A stretch of DNA of 39,803 nucleotides from Escherichia phage HC13. The translations under genes were made by a program, and so were the position numbers. The stretch is taken from the sequence record OL362276.1; one strand, given 5' to 3'. How positions within the stretch are numbered: the first letter of the stretch is position 1; every line of letters starts with the position of its first letter. The notes under the pieces were generated by a model. The model was not told where the DNA came from. It did not search any database and worked only from the letters and a program-made list of their open reading frames with translations. Shown piece by piece: positions 562 through 39,229 of this stretch.

Positions 562-598
562 TTGACAAGATGTACCGACTTAAAGTAGTATGTACCAC
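562..598 (+). promoter_or_regulatory. Strong host (sigma70) early promoter, T7 A2/A3-like
   Basis: TTGACA at 562-567, 18-nt spacer, TAGTAT at 586-591, then GTACCACAT. The flanks (CCGGTTAAGTAGACAGCCTGATAAGTC upstream) closely resemble the T7 A2/A3 promoter region as I recall it. Confidence 0.55.
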
Positions 599-2151: not shown

Positions 2152-2351
2152 CTATGAGTATCGCACTATTGATAGCCATAGGCTATGGACTTATCGCCTA
2201 CGTGCTGGTGAGAGACATCAACAAAGCGCGTAAAGTCTACAAATTCAACTATGTACGTCTGGGTAGCTGGACTGTACGTCAACCTAACGGACGATTCATG
2301 CGTAACTTAGCGAACGTCTGGGATATAGCAACACTTGGGAGCAAACTGTAA
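2148..2351 (+). CDS. Hypothetical small membrane protein (67 aa)
   Basis: In frame with track ORF 1977..2351, but I start it at the ATG overlapping the upstream stop (ATGA). Hydrophobic N-terminus SIALLIAIGYGLIAYVLV. Start uncertain. Confidence 0.4.
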   Translation: MTMSIALLIAIGYGLIAYVLVRDINKARKVYKFNYVRLGSWTVRQPNGRFMRNLANVWDIATLGSKL

Positions 2352-2677
2352 TGAACAAGTCATACGGGATTAATCTGGTACACTCTATGGACGCAGACAT
2401 GCAAATGTTAAGCCTACTGGCTACCGGGTATCGTCACGGGACGTCAAGTCACTCCGCACGTCAACAGCAGGAGCGGGACCGGGTACTGCAAGCAAGACTC
2501 CGGGCTGAGGGCCATAAGTCCGAACTAATGTGTCTGGCGTATGGTGGACGACCAATCACTGACGATGGTAAACTTTTAGTCTCAGGCTGGAAGGCGATAG
2601 ACCAGCGGTCAACCATCAAGCACACGACTCATGGTGACTTCAGTCATCTCCACGCTAACCCGCTGATATGCAAGTAA
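2351..2677 (+). CDS. Hypothetical early protein (108 aa), occupies the slot of T7 gene 0.7
   Basis: ATG overlaps the previous stop. No kinase motifs. Last ORF before the RNAP gene. Confidence 0.5.
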   Translation: MNKSYGINLVHSMDADMQMLSLLATGYRHGTSSHSARQQQERDRVLQARLRAEGHKSELMCLAYGGRPITDDGKLLVSGWKAIDQRSTIKHTTHGDFSHLHANPLICK

Positions 2678-2682
2678 TTCTG

Positions 2683-2706
2683 ACTTAACTATCACTATAG
2701 GACTCA
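2683..2706 (+). promoter_or_regulatory. Phage RNAP promoter (TTAACTATCACTATAGG, +1 about 2700) upstream of gene 1
   Basis: Matches the 11-copy promoter family in this window. Architecture is that of T7 promoters (..CACTATAG G..). Confidence 0.7.
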
Positions 2707-2774
2707 AGGTCTAAGACTCCAAGTGAAAGACCAAAGAGACTTTAAGTGAAAGACTAATAACAAGGACTTTAAGT

Positions 2775-5456
2775 ATGAGCGTCATCTCTATTGACAAGCA
2801 CGACTTCTCTGATGTGTCGAACGCCATTGAGCCGTTTAACCTACTGGCTGACCACTACGGGCAAGACCTTGCAGTCAAACAGCTTCAGCTTGAGCACGAG
2901 GCATACACTGAAGGCGAGCGACGTTTCATCAAGAACCTTGAGAGACAGACTGAGCGAGGGGAACTGGCAGACAATCAGGTCGCCAAGCCTTTGATGCAGA
3001 CTCTGGTCCCTAAGATTGCGCAAGCCGTCAAGGAGTGGCATGAAGGTCCAGACGGGAAGCTGTCAACCTCTCGTCCTAGCGTAGCGTTCACCGTGTTGAG
3101 CACTGAAGAGAAGGCCGTCAAGGACCGCTCTATGCGCATCTCCTGTGAGTCCGCTGCGGTTATCATACTGAAGGTCATACTCTCCAAGCTGGTCAAGCCT
3201 GAAGGGATACCGATTACACCGATGGCCTCCGCGATAGGTCGCACACTTGAGGACGAAATCCGCTTCGGTCGCATCCGTGACAAAGAGAAAGAGCACTTCA
3301 AGAAGGCGATAGCTGATAACCTGAATAAGCGGGCCGGGGCGTCATACAAGAAAGCCTACATGCAAGCGGTCGAGGCGTCCATGCTGGAGCAAGGCCAACT
3401 GGAAGATGCGTGGGGGACTTGGAGTCCTACAGAGGCTGTCCACGTTGGCATCAAGATGCTCGAGATTGTCATCCAGTCAACACAACTGGTCGAGCTTAAG
3501 CGGTATGGTGCTGGTAATGCAGCGGCTGACGTAGAGATGGTCCACCTGTCAGACTTCTGGGTCAAGAAGATGGCACAACGAGGATTCAGCCTTGCGGGTA
3601 TAGCTCCAGTCTACCAGCCTTGCGTCGTTCCACCTAAGCCGTGGACTGGTGTCGTAGGCGGTGGGTACTGGGCCAAAGGACGCAGACCATTACCACTGAT
3701 TCGCTTAGGGTCTAAGTCTGCGGTAGCACGCTACGAAGACGTGTATATGCCTGAAGTCTATGACGCTGTGAACATCATTCAGAATACACCTTGGAAAGTG
3801 AACAAGAAGGTTCTGGAAGTGGTGAACATGGTCGAGAAGCTGAACAACACGCCTATTGATGACATCCCTCAGATGGAACCGCTGAAGCCTGAGGACTATG
3901 CGGGTGAGACTGAAGAAGAACTCAAGGCATGGAAGAAGGCTGCTGCTGGTATCTATCGCCGCGAGAAGGCCAGACAGTCACGAAGATTGTCACTGAGCTT
4001 TATCGTCAACCAAGCGAACAAGTTCTCTCAGTTCAAGGCCATCTGGTTCCCGTATAACATGGACTGGCGCGGTCGCGTCTACGCTGTGCCGATGTTCAAC
4101 CCTCAGGGTAACGACATGCAAAAGGGTCTTCTGACTCTGGCAGTCGGTAAGCCTATTGGTGCTGATGGTTTCAAATGGCTGAAGGTCCACGGTGCAAACT
4201 GCGCGGGTGTCGATAAAGTCACCTTCGAGGAGCGTATCAAGTGGGTGGAAGATAACCACGACAACATCATGGCTGCTGCCAATGCACCGATGGATAGCAT
4301 TGAGTGGTGGGGCAAGTTAGACTCTCCGTTCTGCTTCCTAGCGTTCTGCTTCGAGTATGCTGGCGTAATGCACCACGGCTTGTCTTACTCCTGCTCGCTG
4401 CCGATAGCGTTCGATGGGTCCTGCTCTGGGATTCAGCACTTCAGCGCTATGCTTCGCGACCACATCGGTGGACATGCAGTAAACCTGACGCCATCCGGTA
4501 AGGTCCAAGACATCTACCGCATCGTGTCTGACCGCATTGAGGAGGAGCTTAAAGTCCTACTGGTTAACGGTACGGACAACGAGATGGTAACTCACGAGGA
4601 CAAGAAAACTGGTGAGATTACCGAGCGTCTCAAGCTGGGGACACGAGAGCTTGCCCGTCAGTGGCTGACCTACGGTATGTCACGAAAGGTCACTAAGCGT
4701 TCGGTCATGACTCTGGCCTACGGGTCGAAAGAGTACGGCTTCGCAGACCAAGTTTACGAGGACATCGTGATGCCAGCGATTGACTCAGGGTCTGGCGCTA
4801 TGTTCACTGAACCAAGCCAAGCATCTCGCTTCATGGCTAAGATGATTTGGGAAGCTGTGAGTGTGACCGTAGTTGCTGCGGTTGACGCGATGAAATGGCT
4901 TCAGGGTGCTGCCAAGCTGCTTGCTGCTGAAGTGAAGGACAAGAAGACTGGAGAAATCCTGAAGCCTTGTCTTCCGGTACACTGGGTCACACCTGATGGT
5001 TTCCCTGTCTGGCAGGAATACCGCAAGAAGGACACCACTCGTCTGAACCTGATGTTCTTAGGGTCATTCAACCTTCAGCCTACCGTCAACAAAGGCACGA
5101 AGAAAGAGCTGGACAAGCACAAGCAGGAGTCAGGCATTAGCCCGAACTTCGTCCACTCACAAGATGGTAGCCACCTGCGGAAGACTGTAGTCCACACTCA
5201 CCGCAAGTATGGCGTGATGTCATTCGCAGTGATTCACGATAGCTTCGGGACCATCCCTGCTGACGCTGAGTATCTGTTCCGTGGTGTCCGTGAGACGATG
5301 GTCGAGACATACCGCGATAACGATGTGCTGCTTGACTTCTACGAGCAGTTTGAATACCAGCTTCATGAAAGCCAGCGCGACAAGTTGCCTGAGCTTCCGA
5401 AGAAAGGTAAACTGAATATCGAAGACATCTTGTCTTCAGACTTTGCATTCGCTTAA
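2775..5456 (+). CDS. 1: Single-subunit DNA-directed RNA polymerase (T7 gene 1 homologue)
   Basis: 893 aa, aligns end to end with T7 RNAP as recalled (ANQFKAIWFPYNMDWRGRVYA, HGANCAGVDK, DGSCSGIQHFSAM, KRSVMTLAYGS, NFVHSQDGSHLR, IHDSFGT, C-terminal SDFAFA). Confidence 0.97.
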   Translation: MSVISIDKHDFSDVSNAIEPFNLLADHYGQDLAVKQLQLEHEAYTEGERRFIKNLERQTERGELADNQVAKPLMQTLVPKIAQAVKEWHEGPDGKLSTSRPSVAFTVLSTEEKAVKDRSMRISCESAAVIILKVILSKLVKPEGIPITPMASAIGRTLEDEIRFGRIRDKEKEHFKKAIADNLNKRAGASYKKAYMQAVEASMLEQGQLEDAWGTWSPTEAVHVGIKMLEIVIQSTQLVELKRYGAGNAAADVEMVHLSDFWVKKMAQRGFSLAGIAPVYQPCVVPPKPWTGVVGGGYWAKGRRPLPLIRLGSKSAVARYEDVYMPEVYDAVNIIQNTPWKVNKKVLEVVNMVEKLNNTPIDDIPQMEPLKPEDYAGETEEELKAWKKAAAGIYRREKARQSRRLSLSFIVNQANKFSQFKAIWFPYNMDWRGRVYAVPMFNPQGNDMQKGLLTLAVGKPIGADGFKWLKVHGANCAGVDKVTFEERIKWVEDNHDNIMAAANAPMDSIEWWGKLDSPFCFLAFCFEYAGVMHHGLSYSCSLPIAFDGSCSGIQHFSAMLRDHIGGHAVNLTPSGKVQDIYRIVSDRIEEELKVLLVNGTDNEMVTHEDKKTGEITERLKLGTRELARQWLTYGMSRKVTKRSVMTLAYGSKEYGFADQVYEDIVMPAIDSGSGAMFTEPSQASRFMAKMIWEAVSVTVVAAVDAMKWLQGAAKLLAAEVKDKKTGEILKPCLPVHWVTPDGFPVWQEYRKKDTTRLNLMFLGSFNLQPTVNKGTKKELDKHKQESGISPNFVHSQDGSHLRKTVVHTHRKYGVMSFAVIHDSFGTIPADAEYLFRGVRETMVETYRDNDVLLDFYEQFEYQLHESQRDKLPELPKKGKLNIEDILSSDFAFA

Positions 5457-6003: not shown

Positions 6004-6027
6004 CCTAAACTATCACTATAGGATTAG
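6004..6027 (+). promoter_or_regulatory. Phage RNAP promoter (TAAACTATCACTATAGG, +1 about 6021)
   Basis: Promoter-family match. Position equals T7 phi1.1. Confidence 0.75.
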
Positions 6028-6070
6028 ACTCAAGGTCATGACTCAAAGTCGTGGCCTTCATGATTAACCC
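6022..6070 (+). promoter_or_regulatory. Putative RNase III processing hairpin (R1.1-like)
   Basis: Conserved UAGACUCAAGGUCAU ... GUGGCCUUCAUGAUUAA. Upper stem AAGGUCAU pairs with GUGGCCUU; internal loop and lower stem as in the hairpins at 13150 and 36801. Confidence 0.45.
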
Positions 6071-6099
6071 TAAATAAACACTACTGGAGATTTAACCGT

Positions 6100-7593: not shown

Positions 7594-7603
7594 CTAAATG
7601 TCA

Positions 7604-7645
7604 ACCCAGTGGTCTTCGCGGACTGCTGGGTTTCTTTGCTTTGTG
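7604..7645 (+). terminator. Early (host RNAP) intrinsic terminator TE
   Basis: ACCCAGUGGUC / GGACUGCUGGGU hairpin (about 11 bp with two G-U pairs) followed by UUUCUUUGCUUUG. Same position as T7 TE, immediately after ligase. Confidence 0.6.
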
Positions 7646-8422: not shown

Positions 8423-8504
8423 GTGGTGCGAGCGTAAACTTGAGGAGACAGGTAACGTCGATTACCTTCAGCTCTACAACTTATGGAAGGAGCGTGGTCT
8501 ATGA
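8409..8504 (+). CDS. Small ORF (31 aa), positional gene 1.8
   Basis: My own translation: [31 protein letters not shown]. Overlaps neighbours at both ends. By position only. Confidence 0.3.
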
Positions 8505-8659
8505 CTGACGTAGAGAAGAAATACATCGTGGAGCTTGAGGGTCGCGTTCAGTCCTTCGAGGTTCCGTTGTACGCAAAGTCTCTTGAAGAGGCTACCCTGA
8601 AGTCCCAAGAGTATGAGGACGCTGGGTTTGTGGTCGGACGGATTCGCCCTGAGACCTAA
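8501..8659 (+). CDS. 2: Gp2-like inhibitor of host RNA polymerase
   Basis: My own translation (52 aa): ...[36 protein letters not shown], aligning with T7 Gp2 (...[35 protein letters not shown]). Confidence 0.7.
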
Positions 8660-10295: not shown

Positions 10296-10516
10296 CTCAA
10301 GAAGTTAAGGTCGTTCGTAAGCGTCTGACCATTGATAAAATCCCGGTAGGCTATGCGTTTATCGTCCACGGTAAGCCGGGTGAAGTGTACGTGAAGATTA
10401 GTAACTCTCACGTCTTCAACCATAAGTTGCTCCAGATGCACACCACTGATGCTAACCGCTTCCAACGTCATCTGAACCTCGTAGCTGTAGAGCTGGTGGT
10501 GTACGATGGTGAGTAA
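10292..10516 (+). CDS. Hypothetical protein (74 aa)
   Basis: Strong SD AAAGGAG seven nt upstream. Sits between endo I and lysozyme; no motif recognised. Confidence 0.5.
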   Translation: MTQEVKVVRKRLTIDKIPVGYAFIVHGKPGEVYVKISNSHVFNHKLLQMHTTDANRFQRHLNLVAVELVVYDGE

Positions 10517-10964
10517 GGTTCAGTTCAACCCACGGTCCCGTACTGACGCTATCTTCGTTCACTGTTCGGCTACAAAGCCAGATATGGACATCGGGGTAGA
10601 GACCATCCGTATGTGGCACAAGCAGCAAGGCTGGCTGGACGTAGGCTACCACTTTATCATCAAGCGCGATGGTACTGTGGAAGAGGGACGCCCTGTCAAT
10701 GTCGTAGGGTCACACGTTAAGGACTGGAACTCACGGTCTGTAGGCGTCTGCCTTGTAGGTGGAATTGACGCTAAGGGCAAGTTTGAAGCTAACTTCACTC
10801 CAGCCCAGATGAACTCCCTGCGCAACAAGCTGGCTGACCTGAAGTCCATGTATCCTCAGGCAGAAATCAAAGCACATCATGATGTAGCACCAAAGGCGTG
10901 TCCAAGTTTCGACTTACAGCGCTGGCTGTCTACCAATGAACTGGTCACTTCCGACCACGGTTAA
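10506..10964 (+). CDS. 3.5: N-acetylmuramoyl-L-alanine amidase / T7 lysozyme (gene 3.5)
   Basis: Near-collinear with T7 lysozyme (DAIFVHCSATKP, WLDVGYHFIIKRDGTVEEGR, GVCLVGGIDAKGKF, HHDVAPKACPSFDL). Confidence 0.95.
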   Translation: MVSKVQFNPRSRTDAIFVHCSATKPDMDIGVETIRMWHKQQGWLDVGYHFIIKRDGTVEEGRPVNVVGSHVKDWNSRSVGVCLVGGIDAKGKFEANFTPAQMNSLRNKLADLKSMYPQAEIKAHHDVAPKACPSFDLQRWLSTNELVTSDHG

Positions 10965-12984: not shown

Positions 12985-13149
12985 TTGCTAAGAAAACTTA
13001 AAGCTCGCTACCATCGGTTCATGTACAAATGGTGGAGCGATGAAGCAACCTGCCTGTCTAACATTCTGGGAGACCAGCGGTTCAACTCTGAGGCATGGAA
13101 GAAAGCTAACCGGAAGTTCATGTATCACTTCTTGCGTACAGACTTCTAG
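12985..13149 (+). CDS. Small basic hypothetical protein (54 aa from TTG)
   Basis: Frame of track ORF 12952..13149. I prefer the TTG at 12985, which has SD AAGGAGGAG four nt upstream. Start codon uncertain. Confidence 0.35.
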
Positions 13150-13195
13150 GTCTAGACTCAAGGTCATTCACAGCGAGTGGCCTTTATGATTAGAC
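13150..13195 (+). promoter_or_regulatory. Putative RNase III processing hairpin (R4.7-like)
   Basis: Lower stem GUCUAG pairs with UUAGAC, internal loop, upper stem AAGGUCAU pairs with GUGGCCUU, 9-nt loop. Same family as 6022 and 36801. Confidence 0.45.
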
Positions 13196-13212
13196 TAAAG
13201 CGGAGGATTAAC

Positions 13213-17662: not shown

Positions 17663-17686
17663 ACTAAACTATCACTATAGGGACTT
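17663..17686 (+). promoter_or_regulatory. Phage RNAP promoter (TAAACTATCACTATAGGGA, +1 about 17680)
   Basis: Consensus-class match. Position equals T7 phi6.5. Confidence 0.8.
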
Positions 17687-23890: not shown

Positions 23891-26248
23891 ATGCCGCTTA
23901 TTACGCAAAGCATAAAAAATCTTAAGGGTGGCATTAGCCAACAGCCTGACATCCTGAGGTTCTCAGACCAAGGCGAGGCCCAAGTTAACTGCTGGTCATC
24001 CGAGAGTGATGGCCTCCAGAAGCGTCCACCTACAGTCTTCAAGCGACGTCTTAACATCGACGTTGGGAGCAACCCTAAGTTCCACCTGATTAACCGTGAT
24101 GAGCAGGAGCAGTATTACATCGTGTTCAACGGGTCCAACATTCAGGTAGTCGACTTGAGCGGTAATCAATACTCAGTTTCCGGTGAGGTAGACTACGTTA
24201 AGTCGTCCAACCCGCGAGATGACATCCGTGTCGTTACTGTTGCAGACTATACGTTCGTCGTTAACCGTAAGGTTGTCGTTAAAGGTGGAAGCGAGAAGTC
24301 ACACTCTGGTTATAATCGTAAAGCTCGTGCTTTAATTAACCTGCGTGGTGGACAGTATGGTCGCACCCTTAAGGTAGGAATCAACGGAGGAGTTAAGGTT
24401 TCGCATAAGTTGCCAGCAGGTAATGATGCCGAGAATGACCCACCTAAGGTGGACGCTCAAGCCATCGGTGCAGCTCTGAGAGACCTTCTTGTTGCTGCTT
24501 ACCCTACCTTCACGTTCGACATTGGGTCTGGATTCCTGTTAATCACTGCCCCTTCAGGGACTGACATTAACTCAGTGGAGACGGAGGATGGCTATGCTAA
24601 CCAGCTAATCAGCCCAGTACTCGACACGGTGCAAACAATCTCTAAGTTGCCTCTTGCAGCTCCAAATGGGTACATCATTAAGATTCAAGGTGAGACCAAC
24701 AGTAGCGCCGATGAATATTACGTGATGTATGACTCCAACACTAAGACGTGGAAGGAGACAGTAGAGCCGGGAGTGGTCACTGGGTTCGATAACACCACAA
24801 TGCCTCATGCTCTGGTGAGACAATCTGACGGCTCCTTTGAGTTCAAGACTCTGGACTGGTCTAATCGTGGTGCTGGTAATGATGACACAAACCCTATGCC
24901 TAGCTTCGTGGATGCTACGATTAACGATGTGTTCTTCTACAGGAATAGGCTGGGGTTCTTGTCAGGCGAGAACGTAATCATGAGCCGTTCAGCCAGCTAC
25001 TTTGCGTTCTTCCCTAAGAGTGTGGCTACACTGAGTGATGATGATCCTATTGACGTAGCTGTAAGTCATCCTAGAATCTCAATCCTTAAGTATGCCGTTC
25101 CGTTTAGCGAGCAGCTACTACTTTGGTCGGATGAGGTGCAGTTCGTGATGACAAGCTCTGGGGTCCTTACCTCGAAGTCTATCCAGCTTGATGTAGGCTC
25201 AGAGTTTGCTTTAGGAGATAATGCCAGACCGTTCGCTGTAGGACGCTCAGTCTTCTTCTCAGCGCCTCGTGGGTCATTCACCAGCATTAAGCGATACTTC
25301 GCTGTAGCAGATGTGTCTGACGTGAAGGATGCTGATGATACCACTGGACACGTACTGTCCTATATCCCTAACGGTGTGTTCGACATTCAGGGGACAGGGA
25401 CTGAGAACTACATCTGCGTCAACTCTACAGGTGCATACAACAGAATCTACATCTACAAGTTCTTGTTTAAGGACGGCGTACAGCTTCAAGCCTCTTGGTC
25501 GCACTGGGAGTTCCCTAAAGCTGATAAGATTCTGGCGTCTGCGTCGATTGGCTCTACCATGTTCATTGTTCGTCAGCATCAAGGCGGAGTGGACCTTGAG
25601 CACCTTAAGTTCATCAAGGAGGCCACTGACTTTCCGTTAGAACCATATAGACTCCACGTTGACTCCAAGGTGTCTATGGTAATACCAATTGGCTCATACA
25701 ACGCTGACGCCTATAAGACTACGGTTGACATTGGTTCTGCTTATGGTGGAAACGCTCCGTCTCCCGGTAGGTACTATCTGATTGACAGTCAGGGTGCCTA
25801 CGTGGACCTTGGTGAATTGACCGACATCTCAACTGTGGCTGTGCTCAATGGCGATTGGTCAGGACGTACAGTGTTCATCGGACGGTCTTACCTGATGTCC
25901 TACAAGTTCTCACGGTTCCTGATTAAGATTGAAGACGAGAGTGGCACTCAGTCTGAAGACACTGGACGCCTACAACTTCGTCGGGCTTGGGTAAACTACA
26001 AGGACACTGGCGCTCTTAGACTCATTGTCAGAAACGGTGAGCGGGAGTTCGTGAACACCTTTAATGGTTACACCCTTGGTCAGCAAACCATAGGGACTAC
26101 CAACATTGGGGATGGTCAGTATCGATTCGCTATGAATGGTAACGCATTAACCACGAGTCTAACCTTAGAGTCAGACTATCCTACCCCAGTGTCCATCGTT
26201 GGGTGTGGCTGGGAGGCGTCATACGCTAAGAAAGCTCGTTCCGTCTAA
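23891..26248 (+). CDS. 12: Tail tubular protein B (gene 12)
   Basis: Aligns with T7 gp12 (ITQSIKNLKGGISQQPDILR, VTVADYTFVVNR, FFYRNRLGFLSGEN, DDDPIDVAVS, LQLRRAWVNY, GCGWE). Confidence 0.96.
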   Translation: MPLITQSIKNLKGGISQQPDILRFSDQGEAQVNCWSSESDGLQKRPPTVFKRRLNIDVGSNPKFHLINRDEQEQYYIVFNGSNIQVVDLSGNQYSVSGEVDYVKSSNPRDDIRVVTVADYTFVVNRKVVVKGGSEKSHSGYNRKARALINLRGGQYGRTLKVGINGGVKVSHKLPAGNDAENDPPKVDAQAIGAALRDLLVAAYPTFTFDIGSGFLLITAPSGTDINSVETEDGYANQLISPVLDTVQTISKLPLAAPNGYIIKIQGETNSSADEYYVMYDSNTKTWKETVEPGVVTGFDNTTMPHALVRQSDGSFEFKTLDWSNRGAGNDDTNPMPSFVDATINDVFFYRNRLGFLSGENVIMSRSASYFAFFPKSVATLSDDDPIDVAVSHPRISILKYAVPFSEQLLLWSDEVQFVMTSSGVLTSKSIQLDVGSEFALGDNARPFAVGRSVFFSAPRGSFTSIKRYFAVADVSDVKDADDTTGHVLSYIPNGVFDIQGTGTENYICVNSTGAYNRIYIYKFLFKDGVQLQASWSHWEFPKADKILASASIGSTMFIVRQHQGGVDLEHLKFIKEATDFPLEPYRLHVDSKVSMVIPIGSYNADAYKTTVDIGSAYGGNAPSPGRYYLIDSQGAYVDLGELTDISTVAVLNGDWSGRTVFIGRSYLMSYKFSRFLIKIEDESGTQSEDTGRLQLRRAWVNYKDTGALRLIVRNGEREFVNTFNGYTLGQQTIGTTNIGDGQYRFAMNGNALTTSLTLESDYPTPVSIVGCGWEASYAKKARSV

Positions 26249-26272
26249 CTTATTGAAGGGCCTATAGATTTA

Positions 26273-26296
26273 CCTTAACTATCACTATAGGGACTA
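26273..26296 (+). promoter_or_regulatory. Phage RNAP promoter (TTAACTATCACTATAGGGA, +1 about 26290)
   Basis: Promoter-family match. Position equals T7 phi13. Flanked by the inverted repeat GGGCCTATAG / CTATAGGCCC. Confidence 0.8.
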
Positions 26297-26324
26297 TAGG
26301 CCCTTAAGGTCATAAGGAGACTTT

Positions 26325-26786
26325 ATGTATATTCGCAAGGCTACGGATGTAGACGTTTGGTACGCTGCTGCACAACTTACAGATGACGACTTAGAGGAGT
26401 GTAAAGCCAACTATGGGACCACTGAAGGTCTCACTGAAAGGCTGCAAGCACACCTAACGTCTACATCTGTTGTTTTGACTAACGCTCTTGGAGAGATTTA
26501 CGCCTATGGTGGCAACCAAGGTGACAACGTTTGGTTCCTGACTACCAGAATGACCGAGCGTCTCCCGCCTAAAGGTAAGCGAGAGTTCCGTGAGAGAATC
26601 ATGGAGTATCGTGACAAGATGCTGGAGGACTATCCGGTACTATGGAACTACGTCTGGGAAGGCAATACGTCTCATATCCGGTTTCTCAAGTCAATAGGAG
26701 CTAAGTTCCACGACGATAAGTGGACCAGAAGTCCAGTGACTGGAGAAGTATTTATTCTATTCACAATCACTAAGGAGGACACGTGA
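26325..26786 (+). CDS. Internal virion protein gp13-like
   Basis: 153 aa, good SD. Positional equivalent of T7 gene 13; no sequence recollection to confirm. Confidence 0.55.
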
Positions 26787-36800: not shown

Positions 36801-36855
36801 GTGTTAGACTCAAGGTCATTACTGTATGTAGTGGCCTTTATGGTTAACACTAACT
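36801..36855 (+). promoter_or_regulatory. Putative RNase III processing hairpin (R18.5-like)
   Basis: GUGUUAGAC...AAGGUCAU / GUGGCCUU...GGUUAACAC. Same upper stem as 6022 and 13150; lower stem differs but still pairs (covariation). Confidence 0.45.
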
Positions 36856-39111: not shown

Positions 39112-39205
39112 CTGAATGAATAACTATAGGCGAAAACTGAGTTAATAAGCAGTTAGTAACCTATAGTTACTACCAGTCTAACCTACTGTTTTACAAGGAG
39201 TTTGG

Positions 39206-39229
39206 ACTTAACTATCACTATAGGGAAGA
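39206..39229 (+). promoter_or_regulatory. Phage RNAP promoter (TTAACTATCACTATAGGGAAGA, +1 about 39223), phiOR-like
   Basis: Promoter-family match near the right end, where T7 has phiOR. Confidence 0.8.

Follow-up and report, generated by a model that had tools for sequence, protein, structure and literature searches.

A phage-specific promoter directly upstream of the gene for RNA polymerase in Escherichia phage HC13 and its Kayfunavirus relatives: a likely natural autogene

Bacteriophage T7 is the textbook example of a timed switch from host to phage polymerase, with gene 1, which encodes the phage RNA polymerase (RNAP), being purely early. In the T7 and T3 records, the E. coli promoter C is annotated between gene 0.7 and gene 1, with no phage promoter there; a site for RNase III, R1, is annotated before gene 1 in the T3 record, and a homologous sequence is present in T7. 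The first phage promoter after the early region lies behind gene 1 in both phages. Placement of the polymerase gene under its cognate promoter, with auto-amplification, has been engineered as the T7 autogene (PMC6395690), and another study, citing Endy et al. 2000, reports that moving T7 gene 1 behind a T7 promoter led to auto-amplification (PMC3737178). In Pseudomonas phage LUZ100, the start site of the promoter phi1 was mapped before the RNAP gene, and its authors proposed a positive feedback loop (PMC10134795), and in Vibrio phage phiA318, a phage promoter predicted upstream of the kinase and RNAP genes was termed autoregulation (PMC4099482). Here we analyse the same region in Escherichia phage HC13 (OL362276.1; the window is the whole analysed stretch of 39,803 nucleotides (nt)), in which a putative promoter for the phage's own RNAP directly precedes gene 1, likely forming a natural autogene. 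An earlier note on this DNA had predicted such a promoter and stated that T7 has no phage promoter immediately upstream of gene 1, which agrees with the T7 and T3 records, where the host promoter C is found instead.

The first 8 kilobases (kb) of the window are 92-97% identical to Kayfunavirus genomes (K1F-like; Autographiviridae, Studiervirinae), and the closest relative of the window is LM33_P1 (97% identity). A promoter before gene 1 is already known from the annotation of related genomes: it is marked in Escherichia phage EcoDS1 (NC_011042, as 'phi', 2244-2266, with gene 1 at 2336) and in the Citrobacter phages CR44b (HG818823, 1814-1836, with gene 1 at 1906) and CR8 (NC_023548, 3356-3378, with gene 1 at 3460). 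EcoDS1 and CR44b are 96.9% identical to positions 2640-2800 of the window. In the searched literature, from which the K1F genome paper (Scholl and Merril 2005) was absent, we found neither a discussion of autoregulation or of the leader for the annotated promoter nor experimental work on the Kayfunavirus gene 1 promoter. A 2026 paper on the Kayfunavirus Sparklingdew reports eight CTWAACTATCACTATAGG repeats, one of which falls in the last part of the gene that precedes the RNAP gene, and does not discuss their meaning.

The putative promoter and gene 1 are on the same strand:

2685..2702, + strand: putative phage-RNAP promoter from -15 to +3, TTAACTATCACTATA followed by GGA, with +1 assigned to G2700
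2775..5456, + strand: gene 1, single-subunit RNAP of 893 amino acids (aa) with Pfam RNA_pol and RPOL_N domains

Read directly, the window sequence at the promoter is cttaactatcactataGGACTC, and the junction of promoter and leader reads ctgaCTTAACTATCACTATA on the promoter side and GGACTCAAGG on the leader side. The assignment of +1 to G2700 was made by analogy with the T7 pattern (TATA followed by G); with the gene 1 ATG at 2775, the leader is therefore 75 nt long. The promoter is class II-like and starts with GGA, not GGGA, as do the other class II-like promoters of this genome. A search of the window with the 18-mer TTAACTATCACTATAGGA, allowing up to 3 mismatches, gave 10 matches, every one of them on the + strand, compared to 0.03 expected by chance; the copies start at 2685, 6006, 7681, 8657, 17665, 20504, 21489, 26275, 33945 and 39208. 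Like the promoters of the T7 group, which span about 20 base pairs (-17 to +3/+6), the site at 2685 is a repeated copy of the genome's own consensus on the transcribed strand, without any mismatch to the family consensus between -13 and +3. No family promoter was found to the left of 2685 in the window. The number of same-strand copies and the distance from G2700 to the ATG bear out the placement, in the earlier note, of a family promoter with +1 at about 2700, about 75 nt before gene 1. This promoter belongs to a subclass with T at -14 (TTAAC), whose members lie before gene 1 (2650-2701), before the open reading frame (ORF) at 26325 (26240-26291), and at the phiOR-like promoter (39173-39224), with likeness extending out to -52. 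In the flank from -52 to -18, the gene 1 promoter and the phiOR-like promoter at 39208 are identical at 22 of 35 positions, compared to a mean of 9.9 (standard deviation 3.5) for other promoter pairs; the likeness of the flanks suggests common descent or a shared upstream element.

We surveyed 80 IMG/VR loci encoding relatives of the window RNAP, with the promoter family of each locus derived de novo. In 20 of the 21 Kayfunavirus and Caroctavirus loci, those with an RNAP identity of 79% or more, an own-family promoter started 75-93 nt 5' of gene 1; the 21st (L018) is a truncated contig that yielded no promoter family, and the alignment nonetheless shows the same promoter sequence there. Among about 58 T7-, T3-, KP32- and K11-like loci, we found no own-family promoter within 600 nt upstream of gene 1, although a T3-like contig (L041) carries one at -617; in these genera gene 1 is followed at once by the first promoter (+2677 or +2748). 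The next promoter in the Kayfunavirus loci lies about 300-780 nt past the end of gene 1. Of the 220 phage records that match positions 2640-2800 of the window, 218 cover at least 80% of that stretch. Three promoter types are distinguished by bases -11 to -7 (CTATC, CCCTC and GGTAC): AACTATCACTATAGG, found in the majority of relatives; AACCCTCACTATAGG, which is T3-like and found in four loci (L019, L039, L087 and L088); and GGTACACTATAGG, found in Citrobacter phage CR8 of the genus Caroctavirus (L017). In every lineage of the three, the gene 1 copy is of the genome's own type, and the RNAP specificity loop, which reads TRLNLMFLGSFNLQPT in the window, shifts in parallel with the promoter type (N748/N756; D748/R756, as in T3; and K748). 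By this co-variation with residues 748 and 756, the specificity bases of the promoter (-12 to -8) fit the loop of the cognate RNAP. A T7 RNAP with the K1F specificity loop is active on a promoter with the K1F consensus (PMC3458549).

Constraint was assessed in 17 close relatives, with the third-codon positions of gene 1 (its first 300 nt) as the yardstick. No promoter column was variable (0 of 20), compared to 51 of 100 third-codon positions (Fisher P = 6 × 10−6), and variable columns were likewise significantly rarer in the leader (5 of 72, Fisher P = 3 × 10−10), with a single variable column among the 37 of its repeat-bearing 3' half. In the upstream ORF, 59 of 202 columns were variable. Judged by this comparison of sequences, the leader is not a neutral spacer. 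It contains the following features:

2703..2738, + strand: predicted 5'-proximal two-tier hairpin, CUC-AA-GGUCU-AAG-ACU-CCA-AGU-GAA-AGACC-AAA-GAG, -7.9 kcal/mol
2714-2734 and 2737-2757, + strand: two 21-nt direct repeats, AGACTCCAAGTGAAAGACCAA and AGACTTTAAGTGAAAGACTAA, 86% identical
2762..2777, + strand: gene 1 ribosome site, with the Shine-Dalgarno sequence (SD) AAGGA at 2762-2766, the second GACTTTAAGT at 2765-2774, and the ATG at 2775

In the whole window, AAGTGAAAGAC is found only at 2721 (2721-2731) and 2744 (2744-2754), and GACTTTAAGT only at 2738 (2738-2747) and 2765 (2765-2774). Dinucleotide shuffling of the 75-nt leader produced an exact repeat of at least 11 nt in 15 of 5000 cases and at least 7 repeated 8-mers in 1 of 5000; by these shuffles, the duplicated units to which the earlier note had drawn attention exceed chance. 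The 21-nt repeats hold both copies of AAGTGAAAGAC and the first GACTTTAAGT, and weaker copies of the 21-nt unit are present at 2701 and 2763, the start and end of the leader. The units can be written as a degenerate R-GACTYYAAGT, at 2701, 2715, 2738 and 2765; Tandem Repeats Finder reported nothing in the leader region, because the units are too degenerate and their spacing is uneven (14, 23 and 27 nt). The last unit forms the spacer between the SD and the ATG of gene 1, and GGACTTTAAGTATG, with which the leader ends, is also the gene 1.1 ribosome site of T7-like phages, letter for letter. We rejected GACTTTA as a genome-wide ribosome-site spacer, given that only one of its 8 other + strand copies, at 26319 (GGAGACTTTATG), lies comparably between an SD and a start codon. 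Two GTG mini-ORFs in the leader, 2723-2749 (MKDQRDFK) and 2746-2757 (MKD), overlap as GTGA, each behind an SD-like AAGAC or AGAGAC; neither is conserved in other leader types, and both were rejected.

The hairpin fits within the first 39 nt of the leader and is followed by ACTTTAAG-type units. Its stem GGUC(U)/(A)GACC recurs in all five diverged leader types, and four variable leader columns among the 17 relatives all fall in its apical and internal loops. The leader as a whole folds no more strongly than shuffled sequence (z = +0.82), and the fold of 2640-2790 is not significant either (z = -0.62); a stable RNA structure of the leader was rejected on these values. An Rfam search of 2400-3000 identified no family at E <= 1.

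In T7 gene 10, the epsilon motif UUAACUUUAA has been described as a translation enhancer (PMC9590205). ACTTTAAG is the core of this enhancer, and 6 of the 11 ACTTTAAG copies in T7 lie at most 40 nt upstream of a start codon (P = 1 × 10−5). An epsilon enhancer would be expected upstream of the SD of its gene. In the leader, ACUUUAAG, which has 7 of 10 bases in common with epsilon, is present twice: one copy, at 2739, precedes the SD by 23 nt, and the other, at 2766, separates the SD from the AUG. To judge from these resemblances, the leader units would most likely raise translation of gene 1, whose SD (AAGGA) is weak.

Further features of the genome, among them other T7-type landmarks, are as follows:

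562..591, + strand: sigma-70-type early promoter-like site, TTGACA-18-TAGTAT
784-1293: Ocr, a T7-type landmark
2351..2677, + strand: early ORF upstream of the promoter, 108 aa, phrog_7066 (function unknown)
7603..7632, + strand: terminator-like hairpin, the first downstream of gene 1, after the ligase gene, at the position of TE in T7
8483-8659: gp2-type inhibitor of host RNAP
10506-10964: gp3.5-type amidase

The stop codon of the early ORF is 8 nt 5' of the promoter. A sigma-70-like site was sought in 2600-2775, where it would correspond to a host promoter such as T7 promoter C, and none was found; no terminator-like site was found on the + strand upstream of 7603-7632. The first gene 1 transcripts presumably originate at 562..591 via host RNAP, and the EcoDS1 record annotates three host promoters in the equivalent region.

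Taken together, these findings make it probable that the promoter at 2685 works for the phage's own RNAP, in the slot that holds the host promoter C and R1 in T7 and T3, and that gene 1 is an autogene: the cognate promoter lies upstream on the same strand with no intervening terminator. The suggestion in the earlier note that the phage RNAP could transcribe its own gene is thus supported at the level of sequence by the consensus match, the lack of a terminator, the position, the co-variation and the invariance of the promoter. The sequences show family membership, position, conservation, co-variation and constraint; initiation at 2700, a net positive effect on the RNAP level, how large the feedback is and what the leader does are inferred. 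In the proposed mechanism, host RNAP would start at the left-end early promoters and read through into gene 1, with no terminator between; the first phage RNAP molecules would then start at G2700 and yield more gene 1 mRNA, closing a positive feedback loop, and the G2700 transcript would run on into the genes 3' of gene 1. The feedback would presumably be curbed later by the gp3.5 lysozyme-type inhibitor, as in T7; the gp3.5-type amidase and the gp2-type inhibitor of host RNAP encoded in the window are candidates for such negative control. The 75-nt leader would be the 5' untranslated region (5'UTR) of the G2700 transcript, with a short 5' hairpin, probably for stability, and then A-rich sequence of little structure, in which degenerate R-GACTYYAAGT units resemble the ACUUUAAG epsilon motif that T7 has beside ribosome sites.

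Several points weigh against this interpretation. No transcript data for any Kayfunavirus were found in the searched literature. The promoter at 2685 also serves the genes after gene 1, the next promoter being at 6006, so that selection on it need not concern gene 1. In two lineages, the TATA region deviates in the gene 1 copy only, reading CACTAAAGG in L013, L014, L015, L021 and L022 (start at -81) and CACTGTAGG in L087 (start at -82), while the remaining promoters have TATAGG or TGTAGG in the L013-type genomes and TATAGG in L087; the deviant copies may be weak in those lineages, or may represent a down-tuned feedback promoter. No compensatory changes in the hairpin were seen, so that the hairpin is plausible, not proven. 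The epsilon reading of the leader is itself a weak one: the likeness is limited to the 7 of 10 bases, one of the two copies lies between the SD and the AUG, and ACTTAAAG-type units also stand behind phiOL in T7-, T3- and K11-like phages with no gene start near.

Among the alternatives, the one that survives best, although we consider it unlikely, is that the promoter and its constrained A+T-rich repeat leader form a T7-type replication origin, in which the RNA made from a phage promoter primes DNA synthesis in a neighbouring AT-rich region, with gene 1 transcription as a by-product or second function; this would be the counterpart of the primary origins at T7 phi1.1B and T3 phi1.05, placed before gene 1 rather than after, and it is compatible with an autogene. 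The T3 record annotates the primary origin directly behind phi1.05, and the stretches behind T7 phi1.1B and T3 phi1.05 hold repeated (A)CTT(T)AAG units, the T7 one ending in GGACTTTAAGTATG. KP32- and K11-like phages (L045, L050 and L042) show the same architecture as the Kayfunavirus gene 1 leader behind the promoter that comes first after gene 1, at about +2748 from the gene 1 start: a 5' hairpin, GGGAACC...GGTTCC, then ACTTAAAG units, three in number and spaced about 11-12 nt, with the next gene adjoining. Such units cluster most densely just after gene 1 in 25 of 53 loci from other genera and just before it in 9 of 20 Kayfunavirus and Caroctavirus loci, and the window promoter after gene 1, at 6006, has an R1.1-type RNase III site behind it and no AT-rich module. 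In alignments with T7 leaders, the gene 1 leader scored 31 with phi2.5, 29 with phi1.1B and 28 with phiOL, the other 14 leaders reaching at most 19. The resemblance of the promoter flank to that of the phiOR-like promoter also fits an origin, as does a single TGGTC on the lower strand at 2729-2733, which we take to be a primase-type site by analogy with those of T7.

On the other side, the leader is only moderately AT-rich, with a GC content of 0.37 (0.28 in the lowest 40-nt stretch), compared to 0.29 (0.17) for T7 phi1.1B. This value is among the lowest 2.6% of 75-nt windows but not that of the genome's most AT-rich promoter leader, the one behind the window promoter at 17665 being richer (GC 0.33, 0.20 in the lowest 40-nt stretch). 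The likeness to T7 leaders is not origin-specific, with phi2.5 scoring highest; specific homology to the T7 origin was rejected, given that the score, although significant against shuffles (1 of 2000), is equalled by the phiOL and phi2.5 leaders. Moreover, the ACTTTAAG copies of T7 are mostly at ribosome sites, the primase-type site is not conserved in other leader types, and no mapped Kayfunavirus origin was found in the searched literature.

Less probable still is that the promoter is mainly the leftmost entry point for phage RNAP, serving genome pull-in and transcription of the genes after gene 1, with RNAP dosage being incidental; it would then replace both phiOL, which Kayfunaviruses appear to be without, and the promoter located immediately behind gene 1 in other genera. 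The absence of family promoters to its left and the distance to the next Kayfunavirus promoter, which in other genera follows gene 1 immediately, are what such an entry point would predict. However, its distance from the gene 1 ATG is fixed (75-93 nt), the ribosome site of gene 1 forms the end of the leader, and the transcript necessarily encodes RNAP.

As regards RNase III, a covariance model was built from 18 sites, comprising 12 from Kayfunavirus and Caroctavirus, 5 annotated in T3, and 1 T7 sequence homologous to T3 R1. The canonical RNase III-type sites of the window (6021-6072, 13149-13198 and 36801-36852) score 62-67 bits, all three being part of the training set of the model, and align column for column with the annotated T3 sites R0.3, R0.5, R1.1 and R1.3. 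Matches outside the training set were identified in the early region at 1620-1668 (38 bits), 1977-2027 (34.5 bits) and 697-753 (18.9 bits), none of them directly before gene 1. The leader starts with GACTCAAGGTC, and the canonical sites have this very sequence as their 5' half (at 6027, 13155 and 36807); T3 phi1.1 and phi1.3 each have an RNase III site directly behind the promoter. Nevertheless, that the leader hairpin is the RNase III site R1, as before gene 1 in T7 and T3, with the repeats as stem parts, is highly improbable, and a canonical site was rejected: such a site pairs its halves AGGTC ... G.GGCCT in an upper stem of 9-12 base pairs (bp), with an internal loop and then a lower stem beneath; here the leader has the 5' half, AAGACCA stands in place of the invariant 3' half G.GGCCT, the stem has 11 pairs only with two internal loops, a whole-window search with the model returned nothing in 2650-2800 at E <= 10, and a targeted search of that stretch gave at best 4.6 bits (2.2 bits for the leader itself).

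Three side observations follow. At 316-382 of the window, GACTTAAGGTCTAAGAC...AAAGAC is paralogous to the first part of the gene 1 leader, and behind it, at 369-381, is a degenerate promoter-like AGTCACTATGGGG that is not conserved in K1F and other relatives, so that no phiOL equivalent seems to be present in the genus. The left-end stretch 186-310 holds arrays of short direct repeats (AACCATAAGTCAC / ACCTACAGTC), with a copy number that varies strongly between related genomes. In a T3-like contig of 36 kb (L041; positions -617 and -1569 from gene 1), a phiOL-like promoter with an AT-rich leader lies 617 nt before gene 1; with only 617 nt between this promoter and gene 1, the early region of the contig is apparently very short.

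If gene 1 is an autogene, then in a sister lineage of T7, with at least 220 sequenced phages that include the therapy candidates LM33_P1 and K1F, gene 1 would be also under its own polymerase, in the same auto-amplifying wiring that has been explored artificially in T7 simulations and genome rearrangements. The lineage would therefore offer a natural test of whether polymerase feedback speeds or destabilises a T7-type cycle. The promoter, which follows three polymerase specificities, is a compact case of promoter-polymerase co-evolution, and cloning a K1F-type gene 1 with its upstream region would mean carrying an autogene. Should the element be an origin, it would prime DNA replication and close the polymerase feedback, coupling both processes, and would be the Kayfunavirus and Caroctavirus counterpart of the T7/T3 primary origin module, moved upstream of gene 1.

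Comparison with T7 and T3, which have collinear genomes, shows that the slot separating gene 1 from the last early gene is the same; in T7 and T3 it holds a host promoter and a canonical RNase III site, whereas in the window it holds a phage promoter and no sigma-70-like or RNase III-type site. The contrast is nevertheless a matter of degree: T7 phiOL, at 405, precedes the entire early region, and the annotation has no T7 terminator ahead of Tphi (24210), so that T7 RNAP in principle also reaches gene 1. The origin modules at T7 phi1.1B and T3 phi1.05 share with the gene 1 promoter and leader a GGA or GGGA start, an A+T-rich leader of 75-85 nt, and CTT(T)AAG units, and the end of the T7 phi1.1B leader is identical to that of the window leader; unlike the latter, these modules are behind gene 1 and more AT-rich. 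The engineered T7 autogene and the rearranged T7 are artificial, whereas the arrangement in the window is natural, extends across two genera, and would be started by host-polymerase read-through. In LUZ100 (phi1) and phiA318 (phi-A8), as in the window, a phage-specific promoter stands directly before the RNAP gene, or before the kinase and RNAP genes, but the sequences of these promoters are unrelated to that of the window. LUZ100 is distant and has temperate features, its promoter being thought to be repressed by a MarR-like protein, whereas HC13 is strictly T7-like and lytic with no repressor nearby; phiA318 is a relative of SP6 and K1E. EcoDS1, CR44b and CR8 have the same element at an equivalent site, about 70-100 nt ahead of gene 1, and their records mark the promoter only; to these annotations, the present analysis adds a survey covering both the genus and its sister genus, the parallel change of promoter and specificity loop, the strong constraint under which the leader stands, the rejection of an RNase III site, and the likeness to origin-associated leaders.

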